From Myxococcota bacterium (GTDB lineage Bacteria > UBA10199 > JADFYH01): a stretch of DNA of 64,000 nucleotides. The stretch covers positions 23,394 through 87,393 of the forward strand of contig JBPOIC010000018.1 of the NCBI GenBank assembly GCA_052034865.1. Direction: 5' to 3'. The notes under the pieces are model-generated. The model did not search any database. It was not told the origin of the DNA and worked only from the letters and a program-made list of their open reading frames with translations. Positions 16,293 to 63,192 of this stretch are shown one piece after another; the stretch's first letter is position 1; each line of letters begins with the position of its first letter. The position numbers and the translations under genes are program-made.

Positions 16293-19091
16293 ATGCGCAA
16301 TAAAATCCTAATGACGAGTTTTCTATCTCTCGTCAGTTTTTTATCAATTCAGTCAACGCCTGCCATGGCCGCCCGAACAGAATTTCCCGTTCAAGGTGTT
16401 CTGACAGATGAAAATGGAACAGCCCTTTCTGGAGATCACACGATCACCCTCAATCTTTATTCAAGCTGTGAAGATGCTTCCGTCTTACTCACAGCGGATC
16501 AATCCGTCACGACCGATTCGGATGGCTTTTTCAAAACGTCCCTCGATTTAAGTACGGCTACCGATGAACAAGTCACTGCGATGAATCAAAGTGAAACCCT
16601 CTGTCTGGGAGTTGCGGTGGATGGAGATACTGAGCTGACACCTCGCATGGAATACAGCACGGTACCCTATGCCCGTGTTGCTCAAGTCGCCGATTTGGCG
16701 GATGTGGCAACCGTTGCCATGTCGATCGATTCCAGTGCCCTTTCCGGAATTTTGGGGAGCGGACTTGCCGCTTCTGGAAGCACGATTACCCTCGATACCA
16801 CTTCCAGCAATACCTGGTCTGGATCACAAAGCTACTCTGGTCAGGTCGTTTTATCGAAAGCCCCTAGTGATACAACTTCTGCTAATGCGAGTCTTTTGGT
16901 GAATCCGACTCTTACCGATGCCAATGCCAAGCTTTTTGCTCTGCAAAATTCCGGAACCGATAAATTTTCTGTAAATGGGAATGGAGATGTCACCATCGCC
17001 GGAGATTTAAGTGTGACTGGATCGATGACCTTGCCGAGCGACTCTGTTGTTACTGCCAATATCGTGGATGGAACCATTGCCGCAGCAGATTTGGCGAGTG
17101 ATTCCGTGACTACAGCTAAAATTCTGGACGGAACAATTGCTACTGCTGATATCGCTGCTGATGCAGTGACCTCTGCGAAAATTGCCGCAGATACAATTAC
17201 TGCTGGCGATCTTTCTGCAACCCTTACTTTTGCAGATGCAGATCTAATAAACTTTTCAGCCATCAACTCCTCTGGAACTGGCGAAGGTCTCATTCTTCCT
17301 CAAGGCGCTAACGTGAGCGCTGCAACGGCGGAAGGTCAGATTTCCTGGGATTCTGATGATGATACCCTTTATGTCGGAACGGGCTCTTCGGTTGTGAACA
17401 TTGGAAATCCTTTCGGAGCTGATATCGGAACAAGCGAAATAACGGATGGAACGATTGCTACCGCCGATCTTGCGAACAATGCCGTTACATCAGCGAAAAT
17501 TCTGGATGGTGAGATCGTCAACGCAGATATCAGTGGCTCTGCAGCGATTGCTTACAGCAAACTCAACCTGTCCGGAAGTATTGTGACTGGAGATATTACG
17601 GATGGCACGATTGCGGCCGCTGATCTAGCTTCAGGCGCCGTTACTTCAGCGAAGATTTTGGATGGTGAAATCGTCAATGGAGATATCAGTGCCTCCGCTG
17701 CGATCGCTTATAGCAAATTGAACCTTTCCAGCAGTATTGTGACCGGAGATATTACGGACGGGACAATAGCTAACGCAGATATCAGTGGCTCTGCAGCGAT
17801 TGCTTACAGCAAACTCAACCTGTCCGGAAGCATTTTGACTGGAGATATTACGGATGGGACGATTGCGACGGGTGACATAGCAGCCAATACCATTACAACA
17901 TCAAACCTCGCTGCAGCACTTACCTTTGCAGATGGGGATTTGATTAACCTGGCGGCTGTCAATGCTTCAGGAACATCGGAAGGTTTGATTCTTCCTCAAG
18001 CCGCGAACGTCAGTGCTGGGACGGCGGAAGGACAGATTTCGTGGGATAGCGATAACGATAGACTCTATGTCGGCGATGGGGCTTCGGTGGTCGAAGTAAG
18101 CAATCCTTTCGGATCGGCCGTCGATACGGCTGATATTACCGATGGAACGATCACCGGTGATGACATCAATTCAAATATTGCCGGAGATGGTTTGGTTTTA
18201 ACCTCTGCTTCTCCTGATACGCTTGATATTGGAGCCGGAACAGGAATTACAGTTTCTGCCAACGCGGTTGCCGTAGATCAATCCACGGCCTTCACGTGGA
18301 CGGGTCAGCAATCCTGGACTTCAACCGTCACTGCAACGGGGGCGATTCAGCAGGTGAATCTGACCTTGGGTGGCGATGCCGATGTCGATACCGTCGCTGG
18401 TCTTCAGGTGGCAGTAACCTCAGCCAACACAGGTGATGCGGATGTCGTTTACGGTGTGAATATCGATGACGTTACCTCTGCAGATGGAACTGTTCATGAG
18501 TACGCGATTGGGATCGGTGCGAACTGGGATGAGGTGTTTGATGTGAATGGGACCCTGATTTCATCCGCTGAACTGACATTGCTGGATGGTGGCGTTACGT
18601 TGGGTGAACTCACCAATTCAGGAACCCTCACCGCCACTACCGTTGATATCAATGGTGGTGCAATCGATGGAACCACTCTCGGTGCTTCAACCCCAGCTTC
18701 TGTGAAAGCGACAACATTGGAAACAACGGGTCAGACAAAGTTGGGTGGAAATGTTGTTTTTCAGACGACTGTGAATACCCTGGTGGATGCCGATACATTT
18801 ACTGTGGCTAAAATGTTAGGAAAGATCGTGACTTCAGATACGAGTGGAGCCGCAGTTGGAGTTACAACTGACACTGCAGCAAATATCGTGGCAGCAGTTA
18901 CCGGAGCTGCTGTTGGAGACACCCTTGAAATTATGGTGGTGGTTGAGGGAGGAAATGATCTAACCATCTCAGCAGGGTCGGATGTGACATTGGTGGGAGA
19001 TGCTTCCATCAACGCTAATACTTCACGTATTATTCGCTGCCGCATGACGAACGTTGGTGGTGGAACTGAAGCTGTCACCTGTTATCTGTAA
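16293..19091 (+). CDS. large secreted repeat-containing surface protein
   Basis: 932 aa, signal peptide (MRNKILMTSFLSLVSFLSIQSTPAMA). Thr/Ser/Gly/Asp-rich. Internal 52-56 aa repeats ITDGTIA.ADLA..AVTSAKILDGEIVN.DIS.SAAIAYSKLNLSGSIVTGD and a duplicated module ~120 aa long ...LTFADxDLIN..A.N.SGT.EGLILPQ.ANVSA.TAEGQISWDSD.D.LYVG.G.SVV...NPFG. Confidence 0.65.
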   Translation: MRNKILMTSFLSLVSFLSIQSTPAMAARTEFPVQGVLTDENGTALSGDHTITLNLYSSCEDASVLLTADQSVTTDSDGFFKTSLDLSTATDEQVTAMNQSETLCLGVAVDGDTELTPRMEYSTVPYARVAQVADLADVATVAMSIDSSALSGILGSGLAASGSTITLDTTSSNTWSGSQSYSGQVVLSKAPSDTTSANASLLVNPTLTDANAKLFALQNSGTDKFSVNGNGDVTIAGDLSVTGSMTLPSDSVVTANIVDGTIAAADLASDSVTTAKILDGTIATADIAADAVTSAKIAADTITAGDLSATLTFADADLINFSAINSSGTGEGLILPQGANVSAATAEGQISWDSDDDTLYVGTGSSVVNIGNPFGADIGTSEITDGTIATADLANNAVTSAKILDGEIVNADISGSAAIAYSKLNLSGSIVTGDITDGTIAAADLASGAVTSAKILDGEIVNGDISASAAIAYSKLNLSSSIVTGDITDGTIANADISGSAAIAYSKLNLSGSILTGDITDGTIATGDIAANTITTSNLAAALTFADGDLINLAAVNASGTSEGLILPQAANVSAGTAEGQISWDSDNDRLYVGDGASVVEVSNPFGSAVDTADITDGTITGDDINSNIAGDGLVLTSASPDTLDIGAGTGITVSANAVAVDQSTAFTWTGQQSWTSTVTATGAIQQVNLTLGGDADVDTVAGLQVAVTSANTGDADVVYGVNIDDVTSADGTVHEYAIGIGANWDEVFDVNGTLISSAELTLLDGGVTLGELTNSGTLTATTVDINGGAIDGTTLGASTPASVKATTLETTGQTKLGGNVVFQTTVNTLVDADTFTVAKMLGKIVTSDTSGAAVGVTTDTAANIVAAVTGAAVGDTLEIMVVVEGGNDLTISAGSDVTLVGDASINANTSRIIRCRMTNVGGGTEAVTCYL
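17040..18110 (+). repeat. intragenic tandem DNA repeats (about 168-bp units plus a larger duplicated module) inside the 16293-19091 gene
   Basis: The stretch 17523-17578 is repeated essentially identically at 17775-17830. The motif ggagatattacggatgg(c/g)acgattgc recurs near 17590, 17750 and 17842. Confidence 0.7.
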
Positions 19092-33338: not shown

Positions 33339-34529
33339 TCATTCCCGGATTTGAAGAATTCTCAAGTAGACTTCTCGTACATCATGGCGCAACTGATGAA
33401 AATATTCCAGAAAGTCATCCGCCGATTTTTCGCCCATTTTTTCTGCGAGGTTTTCAAGTAAGTGACTTTCCGGATCGATATAGCCATCTTTTAAACCAAA
33501 CAGAAGCTCCATACGCGTCTCTAACTTTCGGTAGAAAAGATAGGCATTTTTCAAAATCTCTGATTCGGCCTTCAGGATGAGGTTTTTTTCCTGAATCTTT
33601 TCAAGTGCAGATAAAGAATTTGTTTGAAGAATTGGTTCATAAATTTTTCCAAATCGCATTTGGAGATACTGAATGGTAAACTCGATATCAATCAAACCAC
33701 CCATGCCCTGCTTATAATGCAGTCGTCGTGGGGTTTCCCGTCCAATCTCTTTTTCCATACGCTGGCGCAAGCGATGAATCTCTTCATTTAAATCGAGTGG
33801 ATATGGAGAGGAGAAAACCAGTTGATGAAAGAGAGGGAGAAAAGTTTTTACAAATTCCGGATCACCCGCAACCGCACGGGCCTTCAGCAAGGCCTGTTTT
33901 TCCCAGGCTTGTGCCTGATTACGCTGATAGGTGACGTAGGCGTCAAGTGAGGTGACTAAAGCCCCCTGATTGCCGGAAGCCCTGAGTTGGGTATCGATCT
34001 TATATGCGATACCCTGAAGCGTATAGACCGAAAGATAGGAGATGAGTTTTTGCGCCAGGCGGGCATAGAATTCCTGATTGGTGATCTCCGATCTTCCCAC
34101 CGTTTTTCCATTTCTTGAAAAGACAAAGATCAGATCTAGATCGGATTCATAGTGAATTTCCTGTCCTCCCAATTTTCCCATTCCGATAATCGTAAACTCC
34201 GCGCGCATCATTCCACCCGACTGATCCTTAAACATCGGATATCCATACACACGGGCGACGTCTTCCTGCGCGAGTTGAAAGAGAGTGGTCAGTACAGTTT
34301 CGGCAACCCAGGTGAGCCCTTGAAAAACATCGGGAAGGGGAAGGGTTTCTTCGAGATCGGCTTTCTGAAGAAAGGCGACCTGGTCTTTTTTAAACAGTCG
34401 AACACGGTCGAGTTTGGTCTCTAAATCGTCGATACCTTCGAGGTAGGTTTTGATTTTTTCTTTTAGGTTTTGGGGGTTTAGTTCCAGGGTCATAAGGTTG
34501 GAAAATTGACTGGAAAACAGAAGGTTCAA
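33339..34529 (-). CDS. glnE: glutamine-synthetase adenylyltransferase GlnE, C-terminal (AT-C) half as a stand-alone ORF
   Basis: 396 aa. Nucleotidyltransferase motif IIGMGKLGGQEIHYESDLDLIFVF, then RLRASGNQGALVTSLDAYVTYQRNQAQAWEKQALLKARAVAGD and GGLIDIEFTIQYL, collinear with the E. coli GlnE AT-C domain. Confidence 0.8.
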   Translation of the reverse strand: MNLLFSSQFSNLMTLELNPQNLKEKIKTYLEGIDDLETKLDRVRLFKKDQVAFLQKADLEETLPLPDVFQGLTWVAETVLTTLFQLAQEDVARVYGYPMFKDQSGGMMRAEFTIIGMGKLGGQEIHYESDLDLIFVFSRNGKTVGRSEITNQEFYARLAQKLISYLSVYTLQGIAYKIDTQLRASGNQGALVTSLDAYVTYQRNQAQAWEKQALLKARAVAGDPEFVKTFLPLFHQLVFSSPYPLDLNEEIHRLRQRMEKEIGRETPRRLHYKQGMGGLIDIEFTIQYLQMRFGKIYEPILQTNSLSALEKIQEKNLILKAESEILKNAYLFYRKLETRMELLFGLKDGYIDPESHLLENLAEKMGEKSADDFLEYFHQLRHDVREVYLRILQIRE

Positions 34530-34646
34530 TAGTGAAAAACTCCCAGAATATCAAAAAATTAGCAACTTTTTTTATGGGGTGACGATGAGCAGTTTAAGAT
34601 CGGTAGTTTCTTATAAGAGTGTGTTTTTTAGATGCAGAGGTGAATT

Positions 34647-36614
34647 ATGGAAAAGGTGGTCCCTTTAGGAAAAGTGGTGTGGGAAAGAACTGGGGTTGAA
34701 GTAGATGCTGCGAGAATTCTTCCTGTGGGTTCTGAGGGGTTAGCGAGCAGTCGATACGACCTGAATGAATCTGAAGTGGCAGTCGAGATTGCTGATGCCG
34801 GCCAGTTCAGGGCACTACTCAAGTCTCCAAATTTACCAGAATATTGCAGAGTTCGTGCCTCTGAGAATGAGCTGCGTGAATATGTTGCGGAAATGGGGAC
34901 GGATATCGAGAGTTTGATTGCCAGAGGGGAGAGTCGAATTACAGCTCAAGTATTAACTCAGAACGGATTTTCGGAAACTGATGCAGAGCAGTCTATGGGA
35001 ATTCTCGCAAGAGCGATGACCTACTATAACCATCTGGGTGAAAAACAGAGACAAGGCACAGTGAGGGGGCATTTAAACGGTGGAGAAGGGGCACAGCATT
35101 TTTTTAATGTGGCTATGGGCATTGGCTTGGATATCGTTATTGAGAGTTTCATGCAGCAAAGGGAGAATGTAGACGATGGTCAGTTGGGTTTTATTTTGAG
35201 TGCAGCCTATTATGTGAGTGGTGATACCGAGAGTGGTTTGGCTTTTTTAGAGCTTGCGGCCAGGCTTGAAAAGAGAAGCAGCTCATCTGGTGAGCGGGTC
35301 TGTTTTAGAAAATGTGAAAGCGCCCTGCTAGCTCGAGGAATGTTGAATAGGATGTACCAATTTTATGTAGAGCATGAGTGGTATGAAAAAGCTGCCGGGA
35401 TTTATTTTAGAGGATTTTTAGAACAGCCTCAAGAATTCCAGTTTACTCCCGATCATCAAATTTTTTCTTACCTGATTCCTAAACTGAATCGAATGATTCA
35501 AGATCGCTCTTTTTCTTCTCAAACCAGAAGAGCGGCTGCATTTCAAGTAATAGAGCTTGTAAGGGGCAATTCAAATGCGAATACACTCCAACTGTCTGCA
35601 CTTTTAGATCCTTCCACTCTCTCGTCTCTCATCAATCAATCAGACTACGAAGACTCCAAAAAACTACTTTTGGCTTTACAGAGTCTTGTTCAAAAAATCC
35701 CAAACTATTTGAATAGGGTCACCGAAGTTCTGGTCAATTTGGTGATGGAGAATGGATCAGAGGTTACGACTCTTCTTCCCAAAATTTTTCATGGACTCTC
35801 TCTCCAGGCAAAACGGGATCTTATTCTTAAGTTAAAAGAGAGATCTTCAGAGGATCCTAAACTCCAACTCCTACTCGACAGACTTGCGATCGGGCAGGCG
35901 GTGGCCGTGATTCCTCATCCACAACCTGAATTAGGAGTTTATGCCCCTCGCGTGTTGGCGTATCTGCGTGCTGTAGGAGCGAACCTCTATGGTCGTGGGA
36001 TCCCTCCTGTTTTAGATCCTGATTCAAAAGAATCTGGTTTGCGAATGCTTCTTGATTGTCTGGATCGTGTCCTTAAGAACATGGATCCCTCCGGGCTTGA
36101 GGACCCTCTAGGGGCAATCATCGAAGAGATAATAGTTCAGGCTGTCGCTGAGGGTTACGAAATCAAGATCCCCCAGGAAACTCCTTTACGTTTTTTATGG
36201 AGGAAGCTGTTTCCAGGAAAGTCCTTATTGCCAACACCACCCGAAGAAATGGCTAAGGCAATTCTTGAGAGAGTCTTAACGGATGAGCCAGATGAATTCC
36301 CGCCCTCCATTCAAGGGCTGGTCATTGAACTTCAGGCGTGGGGAACTTTGTTTAGAAAGGATGAAAATCCTGATGCGGTGCCTCAAGCCATGATGGCGGC
36401 ATTGATAACGGCTGATTTTGGATCTGATGGAAAAATCCATTGGGAGTCTTTGAGTCTCATGCCCGAATCGGGAGAAAGAGAAGTAAGTTCGGAGCTGCTA
36501 TCTTTGAGAGCTGCTGTTACAGGTGCTCTCGCAGAAGCTTTATCGGGCGGGGTAGATAAACATGGCCGGGGATTGGAGCGCCAACCACTTCCTCTTTTAG
36601 GAAAAGGAAGATAA
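34647..36614 (+). CDS. hypothetical 655-aa protein (no recognisable domain), inside the glnE-splitting insert
   Basis: Long ORF, mostly alpha-helical by composition, no signal peptide. Codon flavour (AGT/AGG/TTA-rich, many GGGG runs) differs from neighbouring housekeeping genes. Confidence 0.6.
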   Translation: MEKVVPLGKVVWERTGVEVDAARILPVGSEGLASSRYDLNESEVAVEIADAGQFRALLKSPNLPEYCRVRASENELREYVAEMGTDIESLIARGESRITAQVLTQNGFSETDAEQSMGILARAMTYYNHLGEKQRQGTVRGHLNGGEGAQHFFNVAMGIGLDIVIESFMQQRENVDDGQLGFILSAAYYVSGDTESGLAFLELAARLEKRSSSSGERVCFRKCESALLARGMLNRMYQFYVEHEWYEKAAGIYFRGFLEQPQEFQFTPDHQIFSYLIPKLNRMIQDRSFSSQTRRAAAFQVIELVRGNSNANTLQLSALLDPSTLSSLINQSDYEDSKKLLLALQSLVQKIPNYLNRVTEVLVNLVMENGSEVTTLLPKIFHGLSLQAKRDLILKLKERSSEDPKLQLLLDRLAIGQAVAVIPHPQPELGVYAPRVLAYLRAVGANLYGRGIPPVLDPDSKESGLRMLLDCLDRVLKNMDPSGLEDPLGAIIEEIIVQAVAEGYEIKIPQETPLRFLWRKLFPGKSLLPTPPEEMAKAILERVLTDEPDEFPPSIQGLVIELQAWGTLFRKDENPDAVPQAMMAALITADFGSDGKIHWESLSLMPESGEREVSSELLSLRAAVTGALAEALSGGVDKHGRGLERQPLPLLGKGR

Positions 36615-36734
36615 TAAATGATGTGAGTGAAATTGTGAAAACCTCAGAAATCTCGCAACCTTTTTGTGTGCGTGACGAGAAGGTGTCACAAATGAGTTTG
36701 AGAGGTTTTAATTCACCAATACTTCGAGGTTGAT

Positions 36735-38243
36735 ATGGGAGATACAGTTCAAAGCAATACCTCAATCCCAAATAGTTACTCATCTAGCTCAAGTGAAATC
36801 CCTGTTTGCATAGGTGAATCCCGCACTCTCGTCGAAGCTTCACCAGATATAGATCCAGAGGAACTTAGAAACAGGTTCAATATTCCTCCAGATAAATTCT
36901 GCCGCGCTTTTTCTCACGCTGTTGGTAAGTATTATTTTGCAACCACTCAGGTTGAAGAATTATCCCCTTCACTTCCAGAATACTCACGACCCCCAAAAAA
37001 AGAATCGGGTGGAAACAACGGTCCAAAGAAGGTGGCCGATGGACTTCCTGACAATGTTGCTAGAAACTTTCTTATCGATACATTGGGACGTAAGCACGTT
37101 GAGCTAGCCTCTGGATCTCGAAATAAAATACTCGACCTCGCCACAGAAAATAAAAGGCTTCAGGATGAACTGAAAAGCCTCCAGGGTCTTGATGGCTCAG
37201 CGATTCATTTTTTCAGCTCCTGGACCGGAAAGGGAGTTGTGGGAGCAGCCTCGGCTGGATTTACTTTCGGTGTGCTCATTCCTAGTGCGAGAGATATTCA
37301 CACCATGATTCGTTTTGGGTTCAAGCCGTTCGGTGAAGCCAGTCTTTTGAGAGCGTATATCGATAAGTGTTTTAAGGAAGGTGATGAAGAGAGAAAGCTT
37401 AACTTGAGACAACTCAGAAGGTTGGAGCTTAGAAATGCACTCATCACAGCTCCTCTAGCGGCCGCAGCGATTGGCGCTGCTTATAAGGCGGAGCCTTATC
37501 TCTTCGGACCCAATGTGGCGAGTAAGGGCATTCAGGCGACTTCTCTCGCTTCTTCTTCACCTTTAGAGCAGCTCAAGAACATGCAGATTACGCTGCCTGA
37601 TCTTCCTCTTTCAGACTATCAAACACTAAAAACAAAAGATTTGAATGCATTGAGTGAAATTTATGATCGATTGAATCAGGCCCAGTCAGAATATCATAAC
37701 ATTGAACGCCGCCTGGTTTCTGAAAATGCAACTCTGAGAGAGCAGGTCAATTTGCTAAAGACGTCTCAAGAGAAAAGTCGTGGGGGGATGATCTACGCAG
37801 GCTTAGTCGGCACGGTGTTGGGCTTTGGTTATGCTGTCACCAAGGCTGAGGAAATGTATGGTTATTCATTGCTGCATCGTGCTGCGGAAAATACCCGCGG
37901 AAGAGTTAACGATAAGTTGCTTCGTATGCCCTGCCCGGAAGTGAATGTTCCAGGCTATGAACCAGCACCTGCAGCAGCACCAGATCCTATGCCAGTTAGA
38001 TTTCCTAAGCCTGAAGATTCGAGAGTATCTGATGCCCATGCCGACCCTGCCAGTGTGGCCGTGGGAGTTGCCGTTCCCACCGTTGCTGCGGCCGCGGTCG
38101 TGGGAACAGTGACAGCGAAAACCACCTTGTTTGCAAAACTCATGACCGGTTTGGGTGTTGCCGTAAGGGCGGTTGCGTCTGCTCCTGCTGCGGCGTTTGG
38201 ATTGATGATTACGTTTAAGAAAGATGATGTGCCGAGGGCTTAA
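36735..38243 (+). CDS. hypothetical 502-aa protein with coiled-coil region and Ala/Val-rich hydrophobic segments
   Basis: Hydrophobic Gly/Ala-rich stretches (GKGVVGAASAGFTFGVLIPSA; GMIYAGLVGTVLGFGYAV; C-terminal VAVGVAVPTVAAAAVVGTVTAKTTLFAKLMTGLGVAVRAVASAPAAAFGLMITF) flank a coiled-coil-like segment (LNQAQSEYHNIERRLVSENATLREQVNLL). Confidence 0.6.
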   Translation: MGDTVQSNTSIPNSYSSSSSEIPVCIGESRTLVEASPDIDPEELRNRFNIPPDKFCRAFSHAVGKYYFATTQVEELSPSLPEYSRPPKKESGGNNGPKKVADGLPDNVARNFLIDTLGRKHVELASGSRNKILDLATENKRLQDELKSLQGLDGSAIHFFSSWTGKGVVGAASAGFTFGVLIPSARDIHTMIRFGFKPFGEASLLRAYIDKCFKEGDEERKLNLRQLRRLELRNALITAPLAAAAIGAAYKAEPYLFGPNVASKGIQATSLASSSPLEQLKNMQITLPDLPLSDYQTLKTKDLNALSEIYDRLNQAQSEYHNIERRLVSENATLREQVNLLKTSQEKSRGGMIYAGLVGTVLGFGYAVTKAEEMYGYSLLHRAAENTRGRVNDKLLRMPCPEVNVPGYEPAPAAAPDPMPVRFPKPEDSRVSDAHADPASVAVGVAVPTVAAAAVVGTVTAKTTLFAKLMTGLGVAVRAVASAPAAAFGLMITFKKDDVPRA

Positions 38244-38527
38244 AGGTTTATTTTGGTGTTCATGGTTTGACCCTTCGACGAGCTCAGGACTCATGGTTCG
38301 ACAAACTCACCATGTCCCTCTCATTATAATGGGACATCCTAATCCTCCTACAGCGGGCTTGGTCTTTCGAAGGGTGAACAGGACAAGTTTTAAAAAGGGG
38401 AGGAGCTCTTAAGTCCTGAATTTCTCATCCATCCTGGGTGGGAGGATCCCCGCCTCTACAGATCCAAGGGAGGGACGCTTTTTAGCGGCTCGCCACGAAC
38501 GGCTTATCGAAGTTATTCTTCATTCCT

Positions 38528-39925
38528 CTATTCAAACAATCTATCAAACGTATTTTTTGCAATCGTTGTAAAACGCGTGAGATCATCGAGCAGACGCTCG
38601 CGGGCTTCTTCGGGATCCTCTTCATAATAACCCATGCGACGGGCAACCGCCTGTTGATCGACAGGTGTGTAAGGAAGGGTTTGCGTTTGGGACTCCTGCA
38701 CCAGCTGCAGACGATGCTCCAGGCGTCTTAGGAAAAGATAGGCATCTTTGAGCTGATGGGCTTCCTGGGCAGGAACGATCTCCTGTTTGGTGAGCTCCTG
38801 AAGGGCTTTGAGAGTCGAAGGTGATCGCAATTGAGGTTTGGATCCGCCATAAAGCATCTGCAGGGCCTGCACAAAAAATTCGATATCGCGAATGCCGCCT
38901 TCTCCGAGTTTTACATTAAATCCTTTGAGTGAAGAAGATTTGATCGACTCATGTGCCTTGCGCTTCATCTCTTTCATCCGGTTGATCGCCCCCAGATCCA
39001 GATGCTTTCTCCACACAAATGGCTCTAGAATTTTTTCAAATTCTTCTCCCAATTCGAGATCACCGGCGATCGGTGCCGAACGAATCAGGGCCTGACGTTC
39101 CCATTCTTCACCGAAACTCTCATAATAATTTTCAATGGCGTTGAGAGAATTTGCGAGGGTTCCACTGCGTCCTTCCGGTCGCAAATTCAAATCCACCCGA
39201 TATAAAAATCCTTCCGGCCGATTTTGTGAAAGCAGACGAGTCAGTTTTTCGGAGAGCTTGATAAAATACTCATGCAAACTCACATCACGAGGCCCGTGCA
39301 CACGACCTTCATCCGTCGAATAGATATATTGAAGATCGATATCCGAAGAATAATTGAGCTCGTTGCCACTGAGCTTGCCCATTCCAATCACACAAAAACC
39401 ACAAAATTCTCCGGGATTCGAAAGAAAGGCCTCACCCCAAGTGGAGCGCATCTTCATTTTCTCATAAGCGAGGGCCGCGCGAACCAGTGCAATCGCAAGA
39501 TTTGAGATTTCGGAAAGAACTGTTTCCTGACCTGCCGCCTGCGAGAGGTCCTTAACGGTCAGTCGCAAAAACTCACGATATTTGTAGCGGCACAGATGCG
39601 AAGCAAATTCTTCATCAGAGAAGGACTCGAGTCTTTCGGGCGCAAGCAAAAGGTCTTCTTCAAAGTCGGATAGTTTCTTATCGGTTTCGATGCAGGGTGA
39701 TGCAACGAGGCTGTCTGCCTCGAGAGGGTAGCGAATCAAAAACTGGCTTAGGAAATGGGAGTTTCCAAAGATGCTTAAAAGACGCTTGGCATTGACTGGC
39801 TCCAGATCAAAGTCCTTGCCAGCAAAGTCGATGTATTTTTGGGAGAAAAGCAGAAAGTCTTCGTAGGCGCGCTGCGGCTCGCCGGACCAATCAAGGATTT
39901 GCCTGATTTGAGCATCGATCTTCAT
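38528..39925 (-). CDS. glnE: glutamine-synthetase adenylyltransferase GlnE, N-terminal (AT-N, deadenylylating) half as a stand-alone ORF
   Basis: 465 aa. VIGMGKLSGNELNYSSDIDLQYIY, LRPEGRSGTLANSLNAIENYYESFGEEWERQALIRSAPIAGD, KLGEGGIRDIEFFVQALQ match the GlnE AT-N domain. Confidence 0.8.
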   Translation of the reverse strand: MKIDAQIRQILDWSGEPQRAYEDFLLFSQKYIDFAGKDFDLEPVNAKRLLSIFGNSHFLSQFLIRYPLEADSLVASPCIETDKKLSDFEEDLLLAPERLESFSDEEFASHLCRYKYREFLRLTVKDLSQAAGQETVLSEISNLAIALVRAALAYEKMKMRSTWGEAFLSNPGEFCGFCVIGMGKLSGNELNYSSDIDLQYIYSTDEGRVHGPRDVSLHEYFIKLSEKLTRLLSQNRPEGFLYRVDLNLRPEGRSGTLANSLNAIENYYESFGEEWERQALIRSAPIAGDLELGEEFEKILEPFVWRKHLDLGAINRMKEMKRKAHESIKSSSLKGFNVKLGEGGIRDIEFFVQALQMLYGGSKPQLRSPSTLKALQELTKQEIVPAQEAHQLKDAYLFLRRLEHRLQLVQESQTQTLPYTPVDQQAVARRMGYYEEDPEEARERLLDDLTRFTTIAKNTFDRLFE

Positions 39926-47205: not shown

Positions 47206-48412
47206 AAAAGGCCGCATAACCAAAATGGGAAGAGAGGTAGCCGCCGATGGGGCCGGAGATCATCGGACCAAAGGCAATGATCGATGAGGTAATGGCAAAA
47301 TGCGAGGCTTTGTATTCGGACTTACAGGTACTCATCTGAAAAATAACAAAGGCCGTGGTTCCGACCCCTGCTGCAAACTGCTCTAGAGAATGAATTAGAA
47401 ATACTTTCAGGATGAAAGTGTTAACCCCTAAAAAATAAAAAGAACTCTCATCCTTCTTTCCGCTAATTGCCAGCCACGCATAGGCCAGAATCGCCAGATT
47501 CATAAACAGGGCAAGTTGCCATAAGCCCTTTTTAAGCCCTTTTCGAAAGACCCACCATCCGCCCCCAATCGAGCCTAAAATTGAAAAAATCTTTCCCGCC
47601 GTTCCGCTGATCCAACCCAGCTGAAAGGTTGTCACTCCCAAATCCATGAGAAAAGGGGTGTTCATTGAAAACAGGAGCGCATCTCCTAATTTATAGATGA
47701 GGATAAAAATCAGAATCAAAATAATGCGGTCCTGGAGAAGATAGCTTTTAAAGGCTTCCCCATATTCTCGAAGATGTTTTTTTAATTGTTCTTTCGGATC
47801 CTTTTTTAGATCGGTCGATACAGGTGGAGGTGGAGGGAGTTTGGGTAAAAAGAAGAAATTGTAAGAAAAAGCGAGGCTTAAAAGGAGAGCACAGGATAGA
47901 AAAGCATAAAACCAGCTTTGGGTTTTTCCCTGAACCATCAAAGGAATGGAAGTGCCAATCATCATGGCAACCCGATATACCGAATTTCGAAACCCTGCAT
48001 AAGCTGCCTGCATTTTGGAATCGAGGGCATCCATATAATAGCCATCGATTGCAATATCCTGAGAGGCGCTTAAAAAAGCGCAGATCACAAACCCTGTCCA
48101 CCAGGCGAATTTTGCATTTGGAATTAAAACCAAAAAGCTCAAAACAAAAAGCATCAGTACCAAATTAAACTGTAACATCATGGCCCAGCTGCGTTTTTTC
48201 CAAAAGATGTCGATGAGAGGGCTCCAGAGAAATTTGAAGGTGTAAGGAATTCCCAAAAGGGAGGTGAGTCCTACGGTGATGTTGCTGGCACCCATCTGTT
48301 TTAAAAAGGCAGGGACGACGCTGGTTCTTAAGAAAGTGAAAGGAAGACCTTCAGAAAGATATAAAAAAGTAATCCATAGAGGGGCTGGGGAAGTCGATTT
48401 TGATTTCTTCAT
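47078..48412 (-). CDS. ampG: AmpG-like MFS permease (PAT family)
   Basis: 444 aa with about 12 TM helices. N-terminal LYLSEGLPFTFLRTSVVPAFLKQMGASNITVGLTSLLGIPYTFKFLWSPLIDIF resembles the AmpG signature (KFLWSPLMD). Confidence 0.8.
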   Translation of the reverse strand: MKKSKSTSPAPLWITFLYLSEGLPFTFLRTSVVPAFLKQMGASNITVGLTSLLGIPYTFKFLWSPLIDIFWKKRSWAMMLQFNLVLMLFVLSFLVLIPNAKFAWWTGFVICAFLSASQDIAIDGYYMDALDSKMQAAYAGFRNSVYRVAMMIGTSIPLMVQGKTQSWFYAFLSCALLLSLAFSYNFFFLPKLPPPPPVSTDLKKDPKEQLKKHLREYGEAFKSYLLQDRIILILIFILIYKLGDALLFSMNTPFLMDLGVTTFQLGWISGTAGKIFSILGSIGGGWWVFRKGLKKGLWQLALFMNLAILAYAWLAISGKKDESSFYFLGVNTFILKVFLIHSLEQFAAGVGTTAFVIFQMSTCKSEYKASHFAITSSIIAFGPMISGPIGGYLSSHFGYAAFFTVCFLVSIPGLSLIPFLPIREKQAYVPESAAPEAAQPRAIR

Positions 48413-48559
48413 AAGATTTGGGGGAGATTGTTTAAATGAGAATGGAGATTCATCCGAAATAAAAACTGCCTAAAGGATAGTCAATCTTTTATCTCGAAAA
48501 TCTACCCGCACGGAATTCGCTTCATCTGTATTGGTTTTTAATTAGTCTTGCCTGTTTTA

Positions 48560-48612
48560 CATTCCCGATTGGGAGTCCTCTGTCTAATCCCGATCGGGAA
48601 TGCTCCGTCTGG
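48560..48612. promoter_or_regulatory. tandem pair of palindromic 12-mers (TCCCGATTGGGA / TCCCGATCGGGA) in the ampG / small-membrane-protein divergent region
   Basis: About 27-bp imperfect direct repeat, each unit containing a (near-)palindromic core: attcccgattgggagtcctctgtct and atcccgatcgggaatgctccgtctgg. Confidence 0.4.
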
Positions 48613-48811
48613 ATTTTTCCTCCGCCTGAAAGCTCACAACTCCTAACATTATGAAATATAATATTTTTGTATTTTTTTCTCCTGTGCAATCTGTCCACAG
48701 AACCTGTGATAAACCTGTGGATGACTCTGTGAAAAAAAACAATTAGTCTCATTCTGATGCGATCTGGAAAAGAGCTGGAACACTTTGCATAAAGATTGGG
48801 CAGGAGGTTTT

Positions 48812-49168
48812 ATGAGTACTTTGCTTTTCGGCAGAAAACGGGTGGCCATATTTCTTTCGACCTTTTTAATTCCGGGTTTGGGACAGATCTATTTGGGGAG
48901 GAAAGGGAAGGGATGGATATTGATGCTCTCCACCCTTACTGCCCTCATCGTCATGTTCGCCAAGTTCATGATGGGTATTTTATGGGCAAGTGAAAACATT
49001 AGACCTGTGCAGTTGTCGGGCGTCATGAGTTTGGAGCTGGTTCTGAAGGCTTATGAATTTTCCAAATACTGGCTTTGGGTGGGATTATTGATTCTCACTC
49101 TCACCTGGGTGGGATCTGTTTGGGATATCCTTCGTCTAAAAGATAATCCCATCGAAGAAGTTCCATGA
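48812..49168 (+). CDS. small membrane protein (TM2/PGLGQ-motif family)
   Basis: Start at the ATG 48812 with RBS aggagg. About 118 aa with three hydrophobic helices and a LIPGLGQIYLG motif. Confidence 0.5.
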   Translation: MSTLLFGRKRVAIFLSTFLIPGLGQIYLGRKGKGWILMLSTLTALIVMFAKFMMGILWASENIRPVQLSGVMSLELVLKAYEFSKYWLWVGLLILTLTWVGSVWDILRLKDNPIEEVP

Positions 49169-49290
49169 TGTAAACCAAATGTAAATTCCCTACGCTTCAT
49201 TTTACACACTACGTCCTTATTTAAACTCTCCTCAACCCACATACTGAGACTCAAAGAAGTGGTTATTCATCCTTAACCCAGGAGAGTTCT

Positions 49291-50757
49291 ATGAAAACAT
49301 TTCCCCTTTGCAAGCGCTATGGCTTGATGCCGGTTTTTATCATTCTGCATCTTTTGTTGCTGATGCTTGTTTTGCAACTGACCGCCTGCGCCCGTACGAG
49401 CAAAAACACAAGTACATCCACAGGATGGAAAGAACAGGCAGGGGTTCGCGCAAAAGCAGATCTTTCACAGACCAAAATCCTCCAGGGCTCTGATGGCCTG
49501 GTTTATCTTCAGGTAGATCTCGAAGGCACGGGATCTCCGCACGGATCTTCCATTCTTCCTGTTCGAAATCCCACCGACTTTGTCGTCGTCCTGGACCGAA
49601 GCGGAAGTATGGCTGCTGCCAAAAAGATCGATTATGCACGTCAGGCCTTGCAGTCACTGGTCAATCAGTTAGGTCCGCAAGATCGCTTTGCCCTTGTCAC
49701 CTTCAGCGATTGGGTTGAAACGCCTTTCATCCTTCAAAATCTGACCGCCTGGAACCGCCCCAGCCTTCTATCCATCATCCGGAATATACACCCTCAAGGA
49801 TCGACGAACCTCAGTGGAGGCCTGCAGGCCGGCATTCAAATGCTGCAATCTTCTGCCTCCCTGGGTCATGCACGCCGGTTGATTCTGATTTCCGATGGAA
49901 TTGCCAATATGGGCATTACCGATTCCTACTCCCTGAATCAGATCGCCTCGAGTGCTACTCAAAACGGCGTCACGATTTCCACGATCGGTGTTGGCCTGGA
50001 GTTTAATGAATCCCTTCTTTCCTCTTTGGCGGATTATGGGGCGGGGCGTTATCACTTTCTGGAGCATCTCCAGACGCTCCATCAGGTTCTCGCGCAGGAA
50101 TTTGATGGAGCATCGCGGATGGTGGCGAGTGATTTGAATCTCAAGCTTCAGCTCCATCCGGAAATTGATCTTGTTGATGCCTCGGGCTACCCGATTGTGC
50201 GTGAAGGAAGAAGTTTTACGGTTCGGCCAGGGGTGCTATCCCTCGGAGAAAGAAAGACCCTGTTTTTGACCCTTCGTTTTCCCACCTATGCCCCCTTCAA
50301 AAAATCTCTAGGAGATATTCGTCTCGACTATCGAACCAATGGGATTGCCTATTCTATTCCTCTGATTTCTTCTTCCCTGCAAATTGCGTGTTTGCCGCTT
50401 CACCAACGCGATGAAGTTCAGAGGGCGATTCAGTCTGATGTCTATCGCAATGCCTGGACGCAAAGTAATTATGGAGGAATGCTCAAGCGCAGCGCGGAGA
50501 AAGTAAGCAAAGGGGATGCATCCGGGGCCTTGTTGGAAATGAAAGAGTACGAAAAAAATCTGGATCAGGCGATTTCCGCTGCACCTGCGGCGATGGCCCA
50601 GCCATTACAATCCCAAAAATCCGAGCTTGGGAATCTTAAGCGAAAAGTGACGGAAGCTTCTCAGAGCCCGGATTCGGCCGTCGAAATGAACCGCCTGGGA
50701 AAGCAATATCAATATGAAGGGATTCAAACTCAAAGGAGTGAAAATATTTCGAAGTGA
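49291..50757 (+). CDS. von Willebrand factor type A (VWA) domain lipoprotein
   Basis: 488 aa. Lipobox LQLTAC. MIDAS motif VVVLDRSGSM...TFSD...TNLSGGL...ISDG. Confidence 0.85.
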   Translation: MKTFPLCKRYGLMPVFIILHLLLLMLVLQLTACARTSKNTSTSTGWKEQAGVRAKADLSQTKILQGSDGLVYLQVDLEGTGSPHGSSILPVRNPTDFVVVLDRSGSMAAAKKIDYARQALQSLVNQLGPQDRFALVTFSDWVETPFILQNLTAWNRPSLLSIIRNIHPQGSTNLSGGLQAGIQMLQSSASLGHARRLILISDGIANMGITDSYSLNQIASSATQNGVTISTIGVGLEFNESLLSSLADYGAGRYHFLEHLQTLHQVLAQEFDGASRMVASDLNLKLQLHPEIDLVDASGYPIVREGRSFTVRPGVLSLGERKTLFLTLRFPTYAPFKKSLGDIRLDYRTNGIAYSIPLISSSLQIACLPLHQRDEVQRAIQSDVYRNAWTQSNYGGMLKRSAEKVSKGDASGALLEMKEYEKNLDQAISAAPAAMAQPLQSQKSELGNLKRKVTEASQSPDSAVEMNRLGKQYQYEGIQTQRSENISK

Positions 50758-53621: not shown

Positions 53622-53708
53622 GGAAGGATGGCCGAGTGGTTGAAGGCGCTCGCCTCGAAAGCGAGTATATCTTAACGGGTATCGTGGGTTCGAATCCCAC
53701 TCCTTCCG
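53622..53708 (+). tRNA. tRNA-Ser (anticodon CGA), class II tRNA with long variable arm
   Basis: GGAAGGA acceptor stem pairing with TCCTTCC plus discriminator G. D-arm GCCGAGTGGTTGAAGGC. Anticodon stem CTCGC/GCGAG with loop CT-CGA-AA. Long variable arm. T-arm GGGTTCGAATCCC. No encoded CCA. Confidence 0.85.
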
Positions 53709-54799: not shown

Positions 54800-54932
54800 T
54801 AAAGGCTGTTCAGTCAGGTCCTACGCAAACAAGACCTACGAACCCCGCCAGGTCCGGAAGGAAGCAACGGTAATAGGAACCTTGTTGTGCCGTGGGGAAC
54901 CCCTGTTCGCAAGGGCAGGGGGTGCCTGGCTT
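54800..54932 (+). ncRNA. ffs: signal recognition particle RNA (4.5S/ffs); boundaries approximate
   Basis: Contains the universally conserved SRP domain IV motif CCAGGUCCGGAAGGAAGCAACGG (54848-54870). Ends in a G/C-rich segment followed by TTTTT at 54931-54935. Sits directly upstream of dnaX, the conserved ffs-dnaX-ybaB-recR arrangement. Confidence 0.65.
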
Positions 54933-57565: not shown

Positions 57566-58129
57566 TTACTTCACCTCCAGCGTTCCCTTCATCGTCGTCG
57601 CATGACCCGGAAAACTACAAAGATAGGGATAACTTCCCGATGTGGACGGAGCCCTGAAGCTGATTTCGTCAGATTCTCCCGGATTGATCATTTTGGTATG
57701 GGCGAGGATGTTGGGTGAATCCGGAAGCCATCCTTTCTCTGCACCCGCCTGCATGGCTGCCTGAGCGACATCATTTTCTGTTCCTGTTTTCACCAATACC
57801 CAGTTGTGCTGAAGAGCCGAGGTTTTCGATGCATTGTTGTGGAAGGTGAGTTTGACCGCCTGTCCTGGCTTGGCGGCCAGGGTTGTTTTGTCGAATGTGA
57901 GACTATCCCCTGAAGTCCCAATTTCAAGTGAAACGCTTTGGGGTTGAGTTTCAGCAGGTGAGACTGGAGGTGTAGGGGGAATGGGAGAAGTAGGAGAGGT
58001 CGGGGGAATATCCGTTCTTTGGATCTCAGGTGGGGGATTGTTTTGTTGACGGGGAGAACAGCCATTCCAGACCCATGAAAGAGTGAAAATGGACATAAGG
58101 GTCAATATAGCAGCTTGATGAATCATCAT
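57566..58129 (-). CDS. azurin-like blue-copper protein, lipoprotein with Pro-rich linker
   Basis: C-terminal domain ...HNWVLVKTG....AHTKMINPGESDEISFRAPS.GSYPYLCSFPGHATTMKGTLEV aligns with azurin (copper ligands His, Cys, His, Met). N-terminal signal plus Cys, then a PPPEIQRTDIPPTSPTSPIPPTPPVSP linker. Confidence 0.8.
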   Translation of the reverse strand: MMIHQAAILTLMSIFTLSWVWNGCSPRQQNNPPPEIQRTDIPPTSPTSPIPPTPPVSPAETQPQSVSLEIGTSGDSLTFDKTTLAAKPGQAVKLTFHNNASKTSALQHNWVLVKTGTENDVAQAAMQAGAEKGWLPDSPNILAHTKMINPGESDEISFRAPSTSGSYPYLCSFPGHATTMKGTLEVK

Positions 58130-58285
58130 AGATCCTCCTTTTGGTTTTCTTCCTAAATTACAAAGTAGTTCGCACCTGAGATGGGGGCAAGGGGCAAAGC
58201 CAGGAAGGAATAAGGTGAGTCTGATTTTGGATTAGGCTTCAAAATATGGAATGCTGCTCCAAAAAAATCTTATGAGACTCATGCG

Positions 58286-58729
58286 ATGAATGGGATGAAA
58301 AGTTCTTCACACATTTTTCAGGGATTTGGGGGCCTTGTAATGCTGGTTCTGATCTTTGTAGCTGCTCCATTTCTTGGAATGGGTGCCTATGGTCTCTATC
58401 GAAACCTGGAGAGACTCAAAACCTATATTCATGTCTCTGGAGTTGTGGTTGCGAACCAATCCGACTACTCAGATTCGGCTTTATTCCCGAGAGTGGAGTT
58501 TAAAACACGGGAAGGAGAGAGAATGAGCTTTCTGGATGGAGTGGGATCTTATCCAGCAGATTACATGGTGGGGGAGTCCGTTCAGGTCATTTATAATTCC
58601 GCAAACCCTAAAATGGCTGAAATTAATGCATCTAAGCGCCTCTGGCTTGTTCCCATCCTTTTTTTGGTCTTGGGGGCCAGCTTTGTTGGGGTGGGGATTT
58701 TCATTGCCAGAAAAATTAATTCTGTCTGA
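58286..58729 (+). CDS. DUF3592-like membrane protein (two TM helices flanking a beta-rich extracytoplasmic domain)
   Basis: 147 aa. TM1 LVMLVLIFVAAPFLGMGAYGLY, core ...HVSGVVVANQS.....FPRVEFKTREGERMSF......G.SVQVIYNSANPKMA, TM2 LWLVPILFLVLGASFVGVGIFIA. Confidence 0.5.
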   Translation: MNGMKSSSHIFQGFGGLVMLVLIFVAAPFLGMGAYGLYRNLERLKTYIHVSGVVVANQSDYSDSALFPRVEFKTREGERMSFLDGVGSYPADYMVGESVQVIYNSANPKMAEINASKRLWLVPILFLVLGASFVGVGIFIARKINSV

Positions 58730-58799
58730 TCAAAAAGGTTCGGGTTTATTTTATCCTTTTACGAAGGAAGTAAAATAAGATGTCGATCAGAAGTACATA

Positions 58800-58829
58800 T
58801 TGACAGATTCTTTGTCCGTTCCCTAAAAT
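58800..58829 (+). promoter_or_regulatory. sigma70-like promoter of mglA (TTGACA, 18 nt spacer, TAAAAT); predicted start about 7 nt downstream, at the ATG, so probably a leaderless mRNA
   Basis: Near-consensus -35 TTGACA (58800-58805) and -10 TAAAAT (58824-58829). Only 7 nt (ccgcgcc) separate the -10 from ATG 58837 and there is no Shine-Dalgarno sequence. Confidence 0.45.
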
Positions 58830-58836
58830 CCGCGCC

Positions 58837-59424
58837 ATGTCATTCACTAACTACAACGATAAAGAAATAAACTTTAAACTCATCTATTACGGAGCAGCCC
58901 TCTCTGGAAAAACCACTTCCCTTCAGCTCATCCACAAGCGTGCAGACGGAAAAGATGTTCGCAAATTGAGCATTGATACAGGGAATGAACGCACGCTTTT
59001 TTTTGATTTTGTTCCTCTCTTTCTCTCCGAGGTCAACGGCTTTAAAACCCGCTTTCATCTTTATACAGTCCCAGGCCAGGTTTTATATGACGATTCGCGA
59101 AAACTCATCATCAAGGGAGTTGATGGAATCGTGTTTGTCGTCGATTCGCTCATTGAAAAGATGGATGCAAATTTAAAGAGCCTTGAGAATCTGAAGATCA
59201 ATCTCATTGAAGAAGGAATTGCCCTCGAAAAACTTCCCATCGTTTTTCAGTACAACAAACGCGATATGCCAAATGCCGCCAATCTTGATGCCCTTCGAAA
59301 GCTGATGAATCCCTGGGGCTTTCCCGATTTTGAATCGATCGCCACCACTGGAGAAGGAGTTTTTGAAGTTTTTAAGGAGTTGGCAAAAAAAGTGGTGAAA
59401 GATCAGTTAAAAAAGGCGAGCTGA
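58837..59424 (+). CDS. mglA: Ras-like small GTPase MglA (mutual gliding-motility protein A family)
   Basis: 195 aa. Near-collinear with Myxococcus MglA: MSFTNYNDKEINFKLIYYGAALSGKTTSLQ..., TLFFDFVPLFLSEVNGFKTRFHLYTVPGQVLYDDSRKLIIKGVDGIVFVVDS, QYNKRDMPNA. P-loop is GAALSGKT (Myxococcus: GPGLCGKT). Confidence 0.9.
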   Translation: MSFTNYNDKEINFKLIYYGAALSGKTTSLQLIHKRADGKDVRKLSIDTGNERTLFFDFVPLFLSEVNGFKTRFHLYTVPGQVLYDDSRKLIIKGVDGIVFVVDSLIEKMDANLKSLENLKINLIEEGIALEKLPIVFQYNKRDMPNAANLDALRKLMNPWGFPDFESIATTGEGVFEVFKELAKKVVKDQLKKAS

Positions 59425-63100: not shown

Positions 63101-63192
63101 TAAGGGGAGGGGAGCCAGGTCAAGTAGAAGTGCTTGGGGGAAGAAGTGAAAGACCTGGTGCGGTTACATTAGGGAGAATCATCCGTAAATAA
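60106..63192 (+). CDS. large hypothetical protein (1028 aa), predicted all-alpha, no signal peptide
   Basis: Long uninterrupted ORF with RBS (ggaagct...ATG). Pro/Ser-rich N-terminal 100 aa, then helical repeats. Same atypical codon flavour as the 34647-38243 genes. Confidence 0.6.
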   Translation: MTDPISAKVPGPDSSGALDPYSTTHPPMSQSRNEGLPFNPFPTVAERDRFAHLIPEPSLPPFHFRLWDPRNSRFLLNPPQDLSSSSISSDDSDALQLAAVLFCDALALIVRDTWKKMDTGAVLNDDPSIHLHLSLFESRTERARWREKVSSLLSTPHIKKSMGERDAVAAVKQIILLQQMAYSEPAAFALLTELRASLVDAMNNLRSQASGFSTPMLVRNLTVQIRLLDTAWDDIVSQKIKRARENMVRAPSTSVDLFLEIRMEIIRVTKTGRAAEKQLQGIRKLTAGFLEYQEGFAIEKDTLLAQVDQAFDEELIASVDLLKEEAATKPEAVLSLASLSDVIRKYEEKIAEMMPDKPPRDLAHLHVELGFKSHQACLAIRPAYVFNEDTSPSHLRKMIQVLGFLAKRENPSALLELKKIAVSTASKDAVLVIAKLADDEAKPNLRLEAELVLYSTLREIDEVHVFTQPGRVCAEEVQRHILQQDKSRKGRVSPSQIIQKYFQDNDRIYSDSPLPRVQKSPPRISQWQGFSKLKAEGNLISAMEILGGQERIAEIISEWLRDGKMEMGGLRSEVEFANMIAQRVQSNLKEMSADQMTDFIAGELLQTNEEEAIGVISPRFMVDLLKENARYQPMATAQLARLQSRLILTDSMTGPESPLYQLVDEIHHYLTNLDPAFNEENPLSAGALEGLAIEGNERGLDHWVRMAAQGGQKKDLVVLARIADRGAQSIRPRAVLKLQMVLYAKAEEGNEAAAHLLKSILEKGNQCRSLESLVEQELQSKISSEGPPSAVTAYLKTHPSGVRLSPALREELLKSPTRLGRLYHLYQHVLDSESPDALYLFGIIASEEPDDPAVIHARHLAIFIPRNLILKALMTEDDLEAENPRQENLLRFLSVYDQLFEEHREKEERVLRTTRISDSGLMKLRLGWHQKALEALKDAADQENQEKQYPAERSPPLARNEQSDPLPGEGKDRVEWTEPPRIIHGKADLPGNAGSYKVVRGGEPGQVEVLGGRSERPGAVTLGRIIRK

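Follow-up and report, generated by a model that had tools for sequence, protein, structure and literature searches.

Organization and gene order of the locus

Two large open reading frames (ORFs), ORF655 and ORF502, lie between the two half-genes of glnE in a 64,000-nucleotide (nt) stretch of contig JBPOIC010000018.1 from a Myxococcota bacterium (assembly GCA_052034865.1; the whole stretch is called the window in the following). An earlier note on this DNA had described them as two proteins forming an insert, which is borne out by the synteny with related genomes, and the coordinates and the lengths of 655 and 502 amino acids (aa) given there are exact. The features of the insert and of its immediate flanks, in window coordinates, are:

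34647..36614, + strand: ORF655, intact ORF for an orphan protein of 655 aa
36735..38243, + strand: ORF502, intact ORF for an orphan protein of 502 aa
34530..34646, unstranded: divergent intergenic region between glnE-C and ORF655, holding a 33-nt block and GAGGTGA
36615..36734, unstranded: spacer of 120 nt between ORF655 and ORF502, holding a second copy of the block and GAGG
38244..38527, unstranded: convergent spacer of 284 nt from the ORF502 stop to the glnE-N stop, holding a copy of a palindromic repeat
33339..34529, - strand: C-terminal half-gene of glnE (glnE-C; left flank) with GlnE and GlnD_UR_UTase domains (Pfam GlnE E=6e-60)
38528..39925, - strand: N-terminal half-gene of glnE (glnE-N; right flank), 465 aa (Pfam GlnE E=6e-58, GlnD_UR_UTase E=1e-34)

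In most bacteria, glnE is a single gene. Of the 946 positions of the NCBIfam GlnE model, the right half-gene of the window matches positions 30-437 and the left one positions 589-870. The true start of glnE-C is probably the ATG at 34493, which would result in a product of 384 aa, and alignments of the glnE-C ORF with relatives start at its residues 14-22. The closest homologues of GlnE-N are 53-63% identical, and because all of them are stand-alone proteins as well (about 452-483 aa), the insert was not the cause of the split of glnE. For comparison of the locus, 41 loci were fetched by a genome scan with a 26-sequence GlnE-N alignment followed by tblastn; two of them (L003 and L010) are duplicates of the contig of a third (L002). 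The gene order AddB-AddA-GlnE-N-GlnE-C-GshA-DksA-DciA is kept in the first six relatives, in which the glnE halves are -4 to +90 bp apart, and according to tblastn the halves lie side by side in 14 related genomes (L001, L002, L005-L008, L011-L014 and L017-L020). In the window alone, about 4.0 kb (34530-38527) with genes on the opposite strand are located between them, and no sequence similar to ORF655 or ORF502 was matched by tblastn in any of the 41 fetched loci. The closest GlnE sequences and the syntenic relatives belong to metagenome-assembled genomes (MAGs) that are labelled Deltaproteobacteria, Pseudomonadota or 'bacterium'.

Two further relatives carry a gene for an unrelated secreted protein of 818-820 aa at the same glnE junction, in each case as a single gene on the same strand (L015:4539-6995; L016:6105-8567). 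The encoded protein combines a signal peptide with a 'CSLREAVIAAN' motif and repeats that are Gly/Asn-rich and beta-helix-like; its hydrophobic C-terminal tail has basic end residues, and the protein is apparently a beta-helix protein of the 'CSLREA' type. Because these two genomes hold different cargo there, the junction between glnE-N and glnE-C is a recurrent landing site. In the relatives, glnE-C and gshA lie downstream of glnE-N on the same strand, whereas in the window 4 kb of convergent and divergent genes intervene; given this gene order, glnE-C and gshA must be transcribed from the divergent region of 117-153 bp that they share with ORF655. The insertion in reverse orientation would thus cut glnE-C and gshA off from the addBA-glnE-N transcription unit of the relatives.

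The two-gene form of glnE was observed throughout the clade (loci L001-L020), with an N half of ~465 aa and a C half of ~380-396 aa that are mostly adjacent or overlapping. Farther loci (Myxococcota, Acidobacteriota and others) appear to contain a single-gene glnE, judged from the close spacing of the tblastn matches. In the two-gene form, the adenylyl-removing and adenylyl-transferring halves appear to be naturally separated.

Support for the junctions from independent contigs

Two Logan contigs of the sequencing run SRR34217545 reproduce the window positions 49925-36860 and 36586-23308, the former with 100% identity and the latter with three mismatches, all of which are at its far end. One of them leads from GlnE-C into 646 codons of ORF655, and the other from GlnE-N into 460 codons of ORF502. 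As each contig continues from core genes far into the insert and reproduces the junction there with 100% identity, the two core/insert junctions are real. Both contigs stop at a segment of 273 nt (36587-36859) that extends from the end of ORF655 across the spacer to codon 42 of ORF502. This break may result from a branch of the assembly graph caused by strain variation, or from a strain-variable or repeated segment. As the middle of the insert is bridged by the NCBI contig alone, an assembly artefact might be considered, in which a chimeric join has put unrelated DNA between the glnE halves. However, both Logan contigs run unbroken from a core gene far into the insert, and the two halves of the insert agree in their unusual codon signature and share the upstream block, which leaves such an artefact hardly credible.

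Coding potential and upstream sequences

ORF655 and ORF502 share a reading frame and are separated by 120 nt with six in-frame stop codons. A GAGG Shine-Dalgarno sequence lies at normal spacing before each of them and is, for ORF655, part of a ribosome-binding site GAGGTGA 5 nt before the ATG. Coding potential was determined with a 3-periodic second-order Markov model trained on 28 larger ORFs of the window, most of them with family matches. In the annotated frame, ORF655 scored +0.067 and ORF502 +0.040 bits per codon, compared to -0.28 to -0.50 in the other frames of ORF655 and -0.28 to -0.54 in the non-annotated frames of both ORFs. Across the region, all five non-annotated frames were non-coding by score, and the longest ORF in them had at most 142 aa. 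The GC contents at the three codon positions followed the order GC1 > GC2 ~ GC3 in both ORFs, which is a coding-type pattern. Because of their length, the closure of the other frames and a coding score that is positive in the annotated frame only, ORF655 and ORF502 are real open reading frames that did not arise by chance.

Together with a 392-aa orphan at 46027 (+0.055), ORF655 and ORF502 had the lowest in-frame scores among the window ORFs scored, and the score turned negative at the C-terminus of ORF655 and at the N-terminus of ORF502. Nothing more than a weak resemblance to a promoter (9 of 12) was detected upstream of ORF655, and no terminator was recognizable. In combination with the singleton status of both ORFs among 15 billion proteins, these observations would be compatible with functionless passenger DNA, either recently acquired or fast-decaying foreign sequence or unselected gene-like ORFs, that is not usefully expressed. 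However, open frames of 655 and 502 codons with all other frames closed are far beyond chance expectation, and the correctly spaced ribosome-binding sites and the codon-position pattern of both ORFs argue in the same direction. Additionally, the deduced sequences are protein-like: helices are amphipathic, heptads occur, and a helical-repeat core was modelled without an alignment at a predicted local distance difference test score (pLDDT) of up to 82. We therefore consider passenger DNA an unlikely explanation, albeit one to be taken seriously.

A 33-nt block at 34551-34583 recurs at 36644-36676 with 23 of 33 positions identical, a match score that was reached in 4 of 1000 dinucleotide shuffles (p about 0.004). 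The two copies are located about 95 nt upstream of the ORF655 start and about 91 nt upstream of the ORF502 start, respectively, and may represent a common promoter or operator. Scanning the block with the sigma-70 consensus yielded no match, and no sigma-54 promoter was seen in it by eye. Scans for sigma-70 promoters and terminators yielded no more matches than expected from shuffled sequences and were thus uninformative.

The convergent spacer downstream of ORF502 contains a copy of a palindromic repeat of ~26 nt (38291-38316) and a related half-copy (38274-38296), with the consensus TCATGGTTCGACAAGCTCACCATGAG. The 20-mer core of this repeat was found in at least 120 metagenome stretches with unconserved flanks, and some of the copies were arranged as close inverted pairs, indicating that the repeat is cosmopolitan. 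It translates into 'FDKLTMS / VRQTHH / SPELVEG' pseudo-peptides, which are frequent in spurious small ORFs. No Rfam family was detected in 34400-38600 at E<=1, and RNA structure in the 284-nt 3' spacer was not significant (z -0.4 and -0.95).

Homology searches

Searches of Pfam and NCBIfam with the whole proteins, and of Pfam with seven fragments of the two proteins at E<=10, returned nothing but noise below the family thresholds. ORF655 and ORF502 had no match in PHROGs and none among PDB sequences below E=0.1. In a word-indexed search of 5.8 billion clustered proteins, each of them matched itself alone and forms a cluster with no other member, a single 162-kb NCBI contig being the source of both. 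Looking up the exact protein sequences led to no indexed contig. A full phmmer search over 1.84 billion representatives with ORF655 as query found only the protein itself. A tblastn search with ORF502 in phage (50,697) and plasmid (72,556) records was negative, and so were scans for its peptide patterns in IMG/VR and in JGI metagenomes. Kinship of the two proteins with the other orphans of the window (1028, 932 and 392 aa), with ORFs lacking Pfam matches in an islet of the relative L001 or with a 518-aa ORF of the relative L005 was not found (all E>0.4). The earlier note had not recognized a motif in either protein, and Pfam, NCBIfam, PHROGs, PADLOC and the PDB likewise provide no family; homology to a well-known housekeeping family, which the note had named as a refutation, was not found in these searches. 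By this measure, ORF655 and ORF502 would constitute two new protein families that fit into no known one.

Composition of the insert

The ratio of observed to expected CpG dinucleotides (CpG o/e) is 0.69-0.73 across 34.5-37.5 kb, compared to 1.05-1.1 in both flanks. The GC content at third codon positions (GC3) is 0.40-0.41 in the ORFs of the insert versus roughly 0.40-0.57 in other genes. The fit to the synonymous codon usage of the host is among the lowest in the window, with values of about 0 for the insert ORFs and 0.04-0.13 for nearly all other genes. The deviation is evident from the shares of individual codons:

AGA share of Arg codons: insert 40%, core genes 12%
AAG share of Lys codons: insert 49%, core genes 26%
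GCC share of Ala codons: insert 21%, core genes 42%
CCG share of Pro codons: insert 6%, core genes 24%
CGC share of Arg codons: insert 11%, core genes 31%

ORF655 and ORF502 match the codon usage of each other better than that of the core, and their insert-versus-core codon log-likelihood ratio is far outside the core distribution. By the same ratio, the 1028-aa orphan at 60106 is 'insert-like' (+0.033, compared to -0.081 +/- 0.028 and a maximum of -0.025 in the core). Thereby, the log-likelihood ratio confirms the atypical codon flavour that had earlier been noticed in the pair and in this orphan, and the proposal of a horizontally acquired or lineage-specific protein set is consistent with both the composition and the absence of the genes from the loci of relatives.

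The foreign composition, the cosmopolitan palindromic repeat at the 3' edge of the insert and the presence of a coiled coil and Gly-rich hydrophobic segments in ORF502, a combination typical of tape-measure proteins, could alternatively be explained by the remnant of a prophage or mobile element, in which ORF502 would have outlasted the decay of the rest, for example as a membrane protein of a tape-measure-like or lysis type. However, PHROGs gave no match, ORF502 found no counterpart in phage and plasmid records or in IMG/VR, and a fold search of ORF655 in the viral library BFVD yielded nothing at E<=0.001. In addition, the insert consists of two genes only and is devoid of an integrase, att-like repeats and a tRNA. 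We regard a mobile-element remnant as very improbable.

The 1028-aa orphan (60106-63192, + strand) has no Pfam, PHROGs or PADLOC match; it is helical, its sequence contains HEAT-like repeats and its N-terminus is rich in Ser and Pro, and the gene of an MglA-like small GTPase is located just upstream (58837-59424). The CpG o/e is low and insert-like (0.62-0.72) also at 47251-49500 and 57751-59250, which may be further foreign or fast-evolving DNA. The strongest deviation of the dinucleotide signature in the window was observed at 16293-19091 (+ strand), where a 932-aa protein without Pfam match is encoded. It carries a signal peptide and numerous 'ITDGTIA.ADLA..AVTSAKILDGEI' repeats; its GC content at second codon positions (GC2) is 0.51, and it is probably a repeat protein of the surface or adhesin-like kind. 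At the gathering threshold, Rfam matched nothing in the window but the bacterial small signal recognition particle RNA (69 bits) and one tRNA (54812-54909 and 53622-53708, respectively).

Properties of the two proteins

ORF655 is an acidic protein (72.6 kDa, pI 5.15), and since its N-terminus is not hydrophobic, it is devoid of a signal peptide. A single-sequence AlphaFold2 model is nearly all helical, with helices of about 15 residues. Both the model and the direct reading of the sequence agree with the earlier description of a helical protein without signal peptide. The best Foldseek matches of the model in the PDB were ARM/HEAT solenoids (CAND1, designed armadillo proteins, importins and beta-catenin) with E=5e-4 to 2e-2, but TM scores of only 0.2-0.3, obtained from a model with a pLDDT of 48. 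Repeat profiles (Arm, HEAT, HEAT_2, TPR, Sel1) did not match, the only hit being SYCP2_ARLD below the threshold (E=0.03-0.06). According to the model, ORF655 is probably an alpha-solenoid, an assignment that refers to the fold class and not to a family.

ORF502 is a basic protein (54.2 kDa, pI 8.64), the first 25 residues of which are rich in Ser, Thr and Asn and contain no Leu. Heptad-like (coiled-coil-like) segments are located at about 122-156 and 292-352 and coincide with the only confident parts of the structural model (pLDDT 65-80). Hydrophobic, Gly/Ala/Val-rich helices with small-xxx-small motifs occupy residues 164-186, 232-250 and 350-371. They are followed by a Pro-rich linker and a hydrophobic C-terminus of 60 aa (436-495) that consists of two lobes (438-460 and 468-494) around a 7-aa polar loop and ends in KKDDVPRA. 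The Kyte-Doolittle hydropathy in a 19-residue frame reaches its maximum of 2.14 within the stretch 436-463, and the first C-terminal lobe is the sole segment of clearly transmembrane grade, and the mean hydrophobicity of the hydrophobic segments is 0.37-0.60 on the Eisenberg scale. The earlier note had described one coiled coil and three Gly/Ala/Val-rich stretches, among which it counted the C-terminal one. Three internal stretches and a C-terminal one of 60 aa are present, and the single coiled coil has to be replaced by two segments. A fold search with ORF502 returned generic long coiled coils only (best E=0.03). An internal duplication of coiled coil and Gly-rich helix was considered and discarded, because the Smith-Waterman score of 35 was reached in 47 of 500 shuffles and BLAST gave no self-match.

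The features of both proteins could also be seen as those of a secreted effector or translocon pair, in which ORF502 leaves the cell, for instance through a type III system, and inserts into a target membrane by its two-lobed hydrophobic domain in the manner of chlamydial Inc proteins or IpaB/YopB-type translocators, while ORF655 is a eukaryote-like ARM/HEAT effector or a chaperone. A Ser/Thr/Asn-rich, Leu-free N-terminus is the composition of type III secretion signals, which the N-terminus of ORF502 resembles, and the best fold matches of ORF655 are eukaryotic ARM/HEAT proteins. Inc proteins possess a two-lobed hydrophobic domain of 40-60 aa with helices of 15-32 aa and a loop of 3-22 aa / <30 aa (PMC3048545). 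Residues 436-495 of ORF502, with a 7-aa loop between lobes of 23 and 27 aa, fit this pattern, alongside coiled coils, although as a formal match only (PMC3048545). On the other hand, neither ORF655 nor ORF502 matches a translocator or Inc family, no secretion-system or phage gene is present among the ORFs family-scanned in the 64-kb window, and the host is no chlamydia, with flanking genes most closely related to those of MAGs labelled Deltaproteobacteria, Pseudomonadota or 'bacterium'. In Inc proteins, the hydrophobic domain usually lies near the N-terminus, unlike that of ORF502 at the extreme C-terminus, and TM scores of 0.2-0.3 from a model with a pLDDT of 48 weigh little. A secreted pair thus appears improbable. 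From the analogy to translocon, effector or phage membrane proteins that had been drawn in the earlier note, the formal agreement with the two-lobed Inc-type pattern remains; the rest is not supported, as there is no match to a translocator, Inc, phage or defence family, no secretion gene among the scanned ORFs and just one clear transmembrane segment.

Possible function of the cassette

The explanation that we favour, with restrained confidence, is that the insert is an accessory cassette of ~4 kb, horizontally acquired or confined to a very narrow lineage, that encodes a solenoid and a membrane-tethered coiled-coil protein acting as a pair at the membrane. The cassette would have entered in reverse orientation at a reused site between naturally separate glnE half-genes. 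ORF655 would be a soluble, acidic helical-repeat (alpha-solenoid-like) protein. ORF502 would be a basic protein with coiled coils, and two hydrophobic helices forming a hairpin at its C-terminus would probably anchor it in the cytoplasmic membrane. The shared 33-nt element upstream of both genes suggests that they may be co-regulated, and the solenoid of ORF655 may bind coiled-coil or disordered parts of ORF502, resulting in a membrane-associated complex. As to its role, the pair might serve an accessory or conflict function, for example by coupling a sensor or regulator to a membrane-perturbing effector that uses its small-xxx-small helices. This guess is based on the small size, foreign nature and variable location of the cassette, on the toxin-antitoxin and DUF559 genes in the neighbourhood of relatives and on the small-residue-zipper helices, which are common in membrane-active proteins. 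The support from the neighbourhood is weak, comprising one relative with toxin-antitoxin modules and two with DUF559 genes.

A more specific proposal seems possible but doubtful at present, namely that the two genes form an undescribed module in which the acidic solenoid ORF655 controls ORF502 and the latter remodels or permeabilises a membrane by means of its small-xxx-small helices and its C-terminal hairpin. Such a module could be a new defence, abortive-infection or inter-bacterial effector system, and the HEAT-like 1028-aa orphan with its matching codon signature would come from the same imported pool.

In one relative, an islet between gshA and dksA (L001:7830-13463) contains a DUF559 gene, two Phd/ParE pairs, a DUF2442 gene and a 546-aa ORF without Pfam match. 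The same islet has two paralogous ORFs of 349 and 265 aa, also without Pfam match, that are 81-84% identical over their aligned regions. In another relative, a polytopic membrane protein of 518 aa (L005:10755-12311) that has no Pfam match and is unrelated to ORF502 is encoded between glnE-C and gshA.

Several observations weigh against the favoured explanation of a functional, acquired membrane-associated pair. No core gene has an in-frame coding score as low as those of ORF655 and ORF502 (z about -2.2 and -2.8; core genes: mean 0.167, sd 0.045, minimum 0.095 bits per codon), and with no homologues at hand, purifying selection is not measurable. The structural models have low overall pLDDT values of 48 for ORF655 (55-82 for residues 190-410) and 44.5 for ORF502, and because of this low confidence, ORF655 can be assigned to solenoids at the level of the fold class only. 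Apart from the first C-terminal lobe, the hydrophobic segments of ORF502 are borderline as transmembrane segments, with hydropathy values of 1.61 for the second lobe and 1.2-1.5 for the three internal ones. The orphan status is less secure for ORF502, which was searched by the word-indexed method, than for ORF655, which was additionally searched by full phmmer. PADLOC defence models gave zero families at E<=1 for both proteins. With respect to the acquisition, the insert contains no integrase or transposase gene, no tRNA is present near it, and terminal inverted or direct repeats bounding it were looked for with negative result. Finally, the nearest sampled relatives have a GlnE identity of only about 53-63%, and 'insert' therefore denotes a gain since a fairly deep split, not necessarily a recent one.

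Significance and comparison with known systems

If expressed, ORF655 and ORF502 would be two new families that pair a soluble helical-repeat protein with a membrane-tethered coiled-coil protein in a lineage without cultured members. The compositional signature of the insert could then serve to list other imported genes of the genome. For specialists, the glnE context may be of more interest than the orphans themselves, considering that the junction took up unrelated cargo at least twice. It also provides a natural case for studying the coordination between removal and addition of the adenylyl group on glutamine synthetase by activities that are separately encoded and, as in the window, separately transcribed. 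As it stands, the cassette is one orphan islet among very many.

With type III translocators (IpaB/YopB/SseC), ORF502 shares the combination of a coiled coil with hydrophobic helices and the absence of a Sec signal. It differs in that neither the whole protein nor its fragments have a Pfam or NCBIfam match to the SseC/IpaB/YopB or IpaC/YopD families. Furthermore, the neighbours of the pair are the glnE halves, gshA, dksA and addAB, and there are no chaperone or secretion genes among the scanned ORFs of the window. Similar to chlamydial Inc proteins, ORF502 has a two-lobed 60-aa domain, coiled-coil-like segments and a Ser-rich N-terminus, but its host is non-chlamydial, sequence similarity is lacking, the domain is at the extreme C-terminus and no type III system is found among the scanned ORFs. 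Inc proteins are specific to Chlamydiae, and judged by the flanking genes the host is outside this group.

The model of ORF655 resembles ARM/HEAT solenoids in being a stack of helices of ~15 residues with its best Foldseek matches there. The differences are the TM scores of 0.2-0.3 from a pLDDT-48 model and the lack of an ARM, HEAT or TPR profile match. Two-gene anti-phage systems that consist of a repeat sensor and a transmembrane effector are similar to the cassette in being foreign, in their location at a variable spot and in the combination of a soluble repeat protein with a putative membrane protein, whereas the cassette has neither a PADLOC match nor an enzymatic or nucleotide-binding domain.

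An ORFan islet at a hot spot is a well-known phenomenon that is common in poorly sampled bacteria. Like such islets, the cassette is absent from the locus of relatives, has atypical dinucleotides and codons and no homologues, and occupies a reused site. In contrast to them, it is not accompanied by a mobility gene, a tRNA or flanking repeats, and it is located between the halves of what is usually a single gene.

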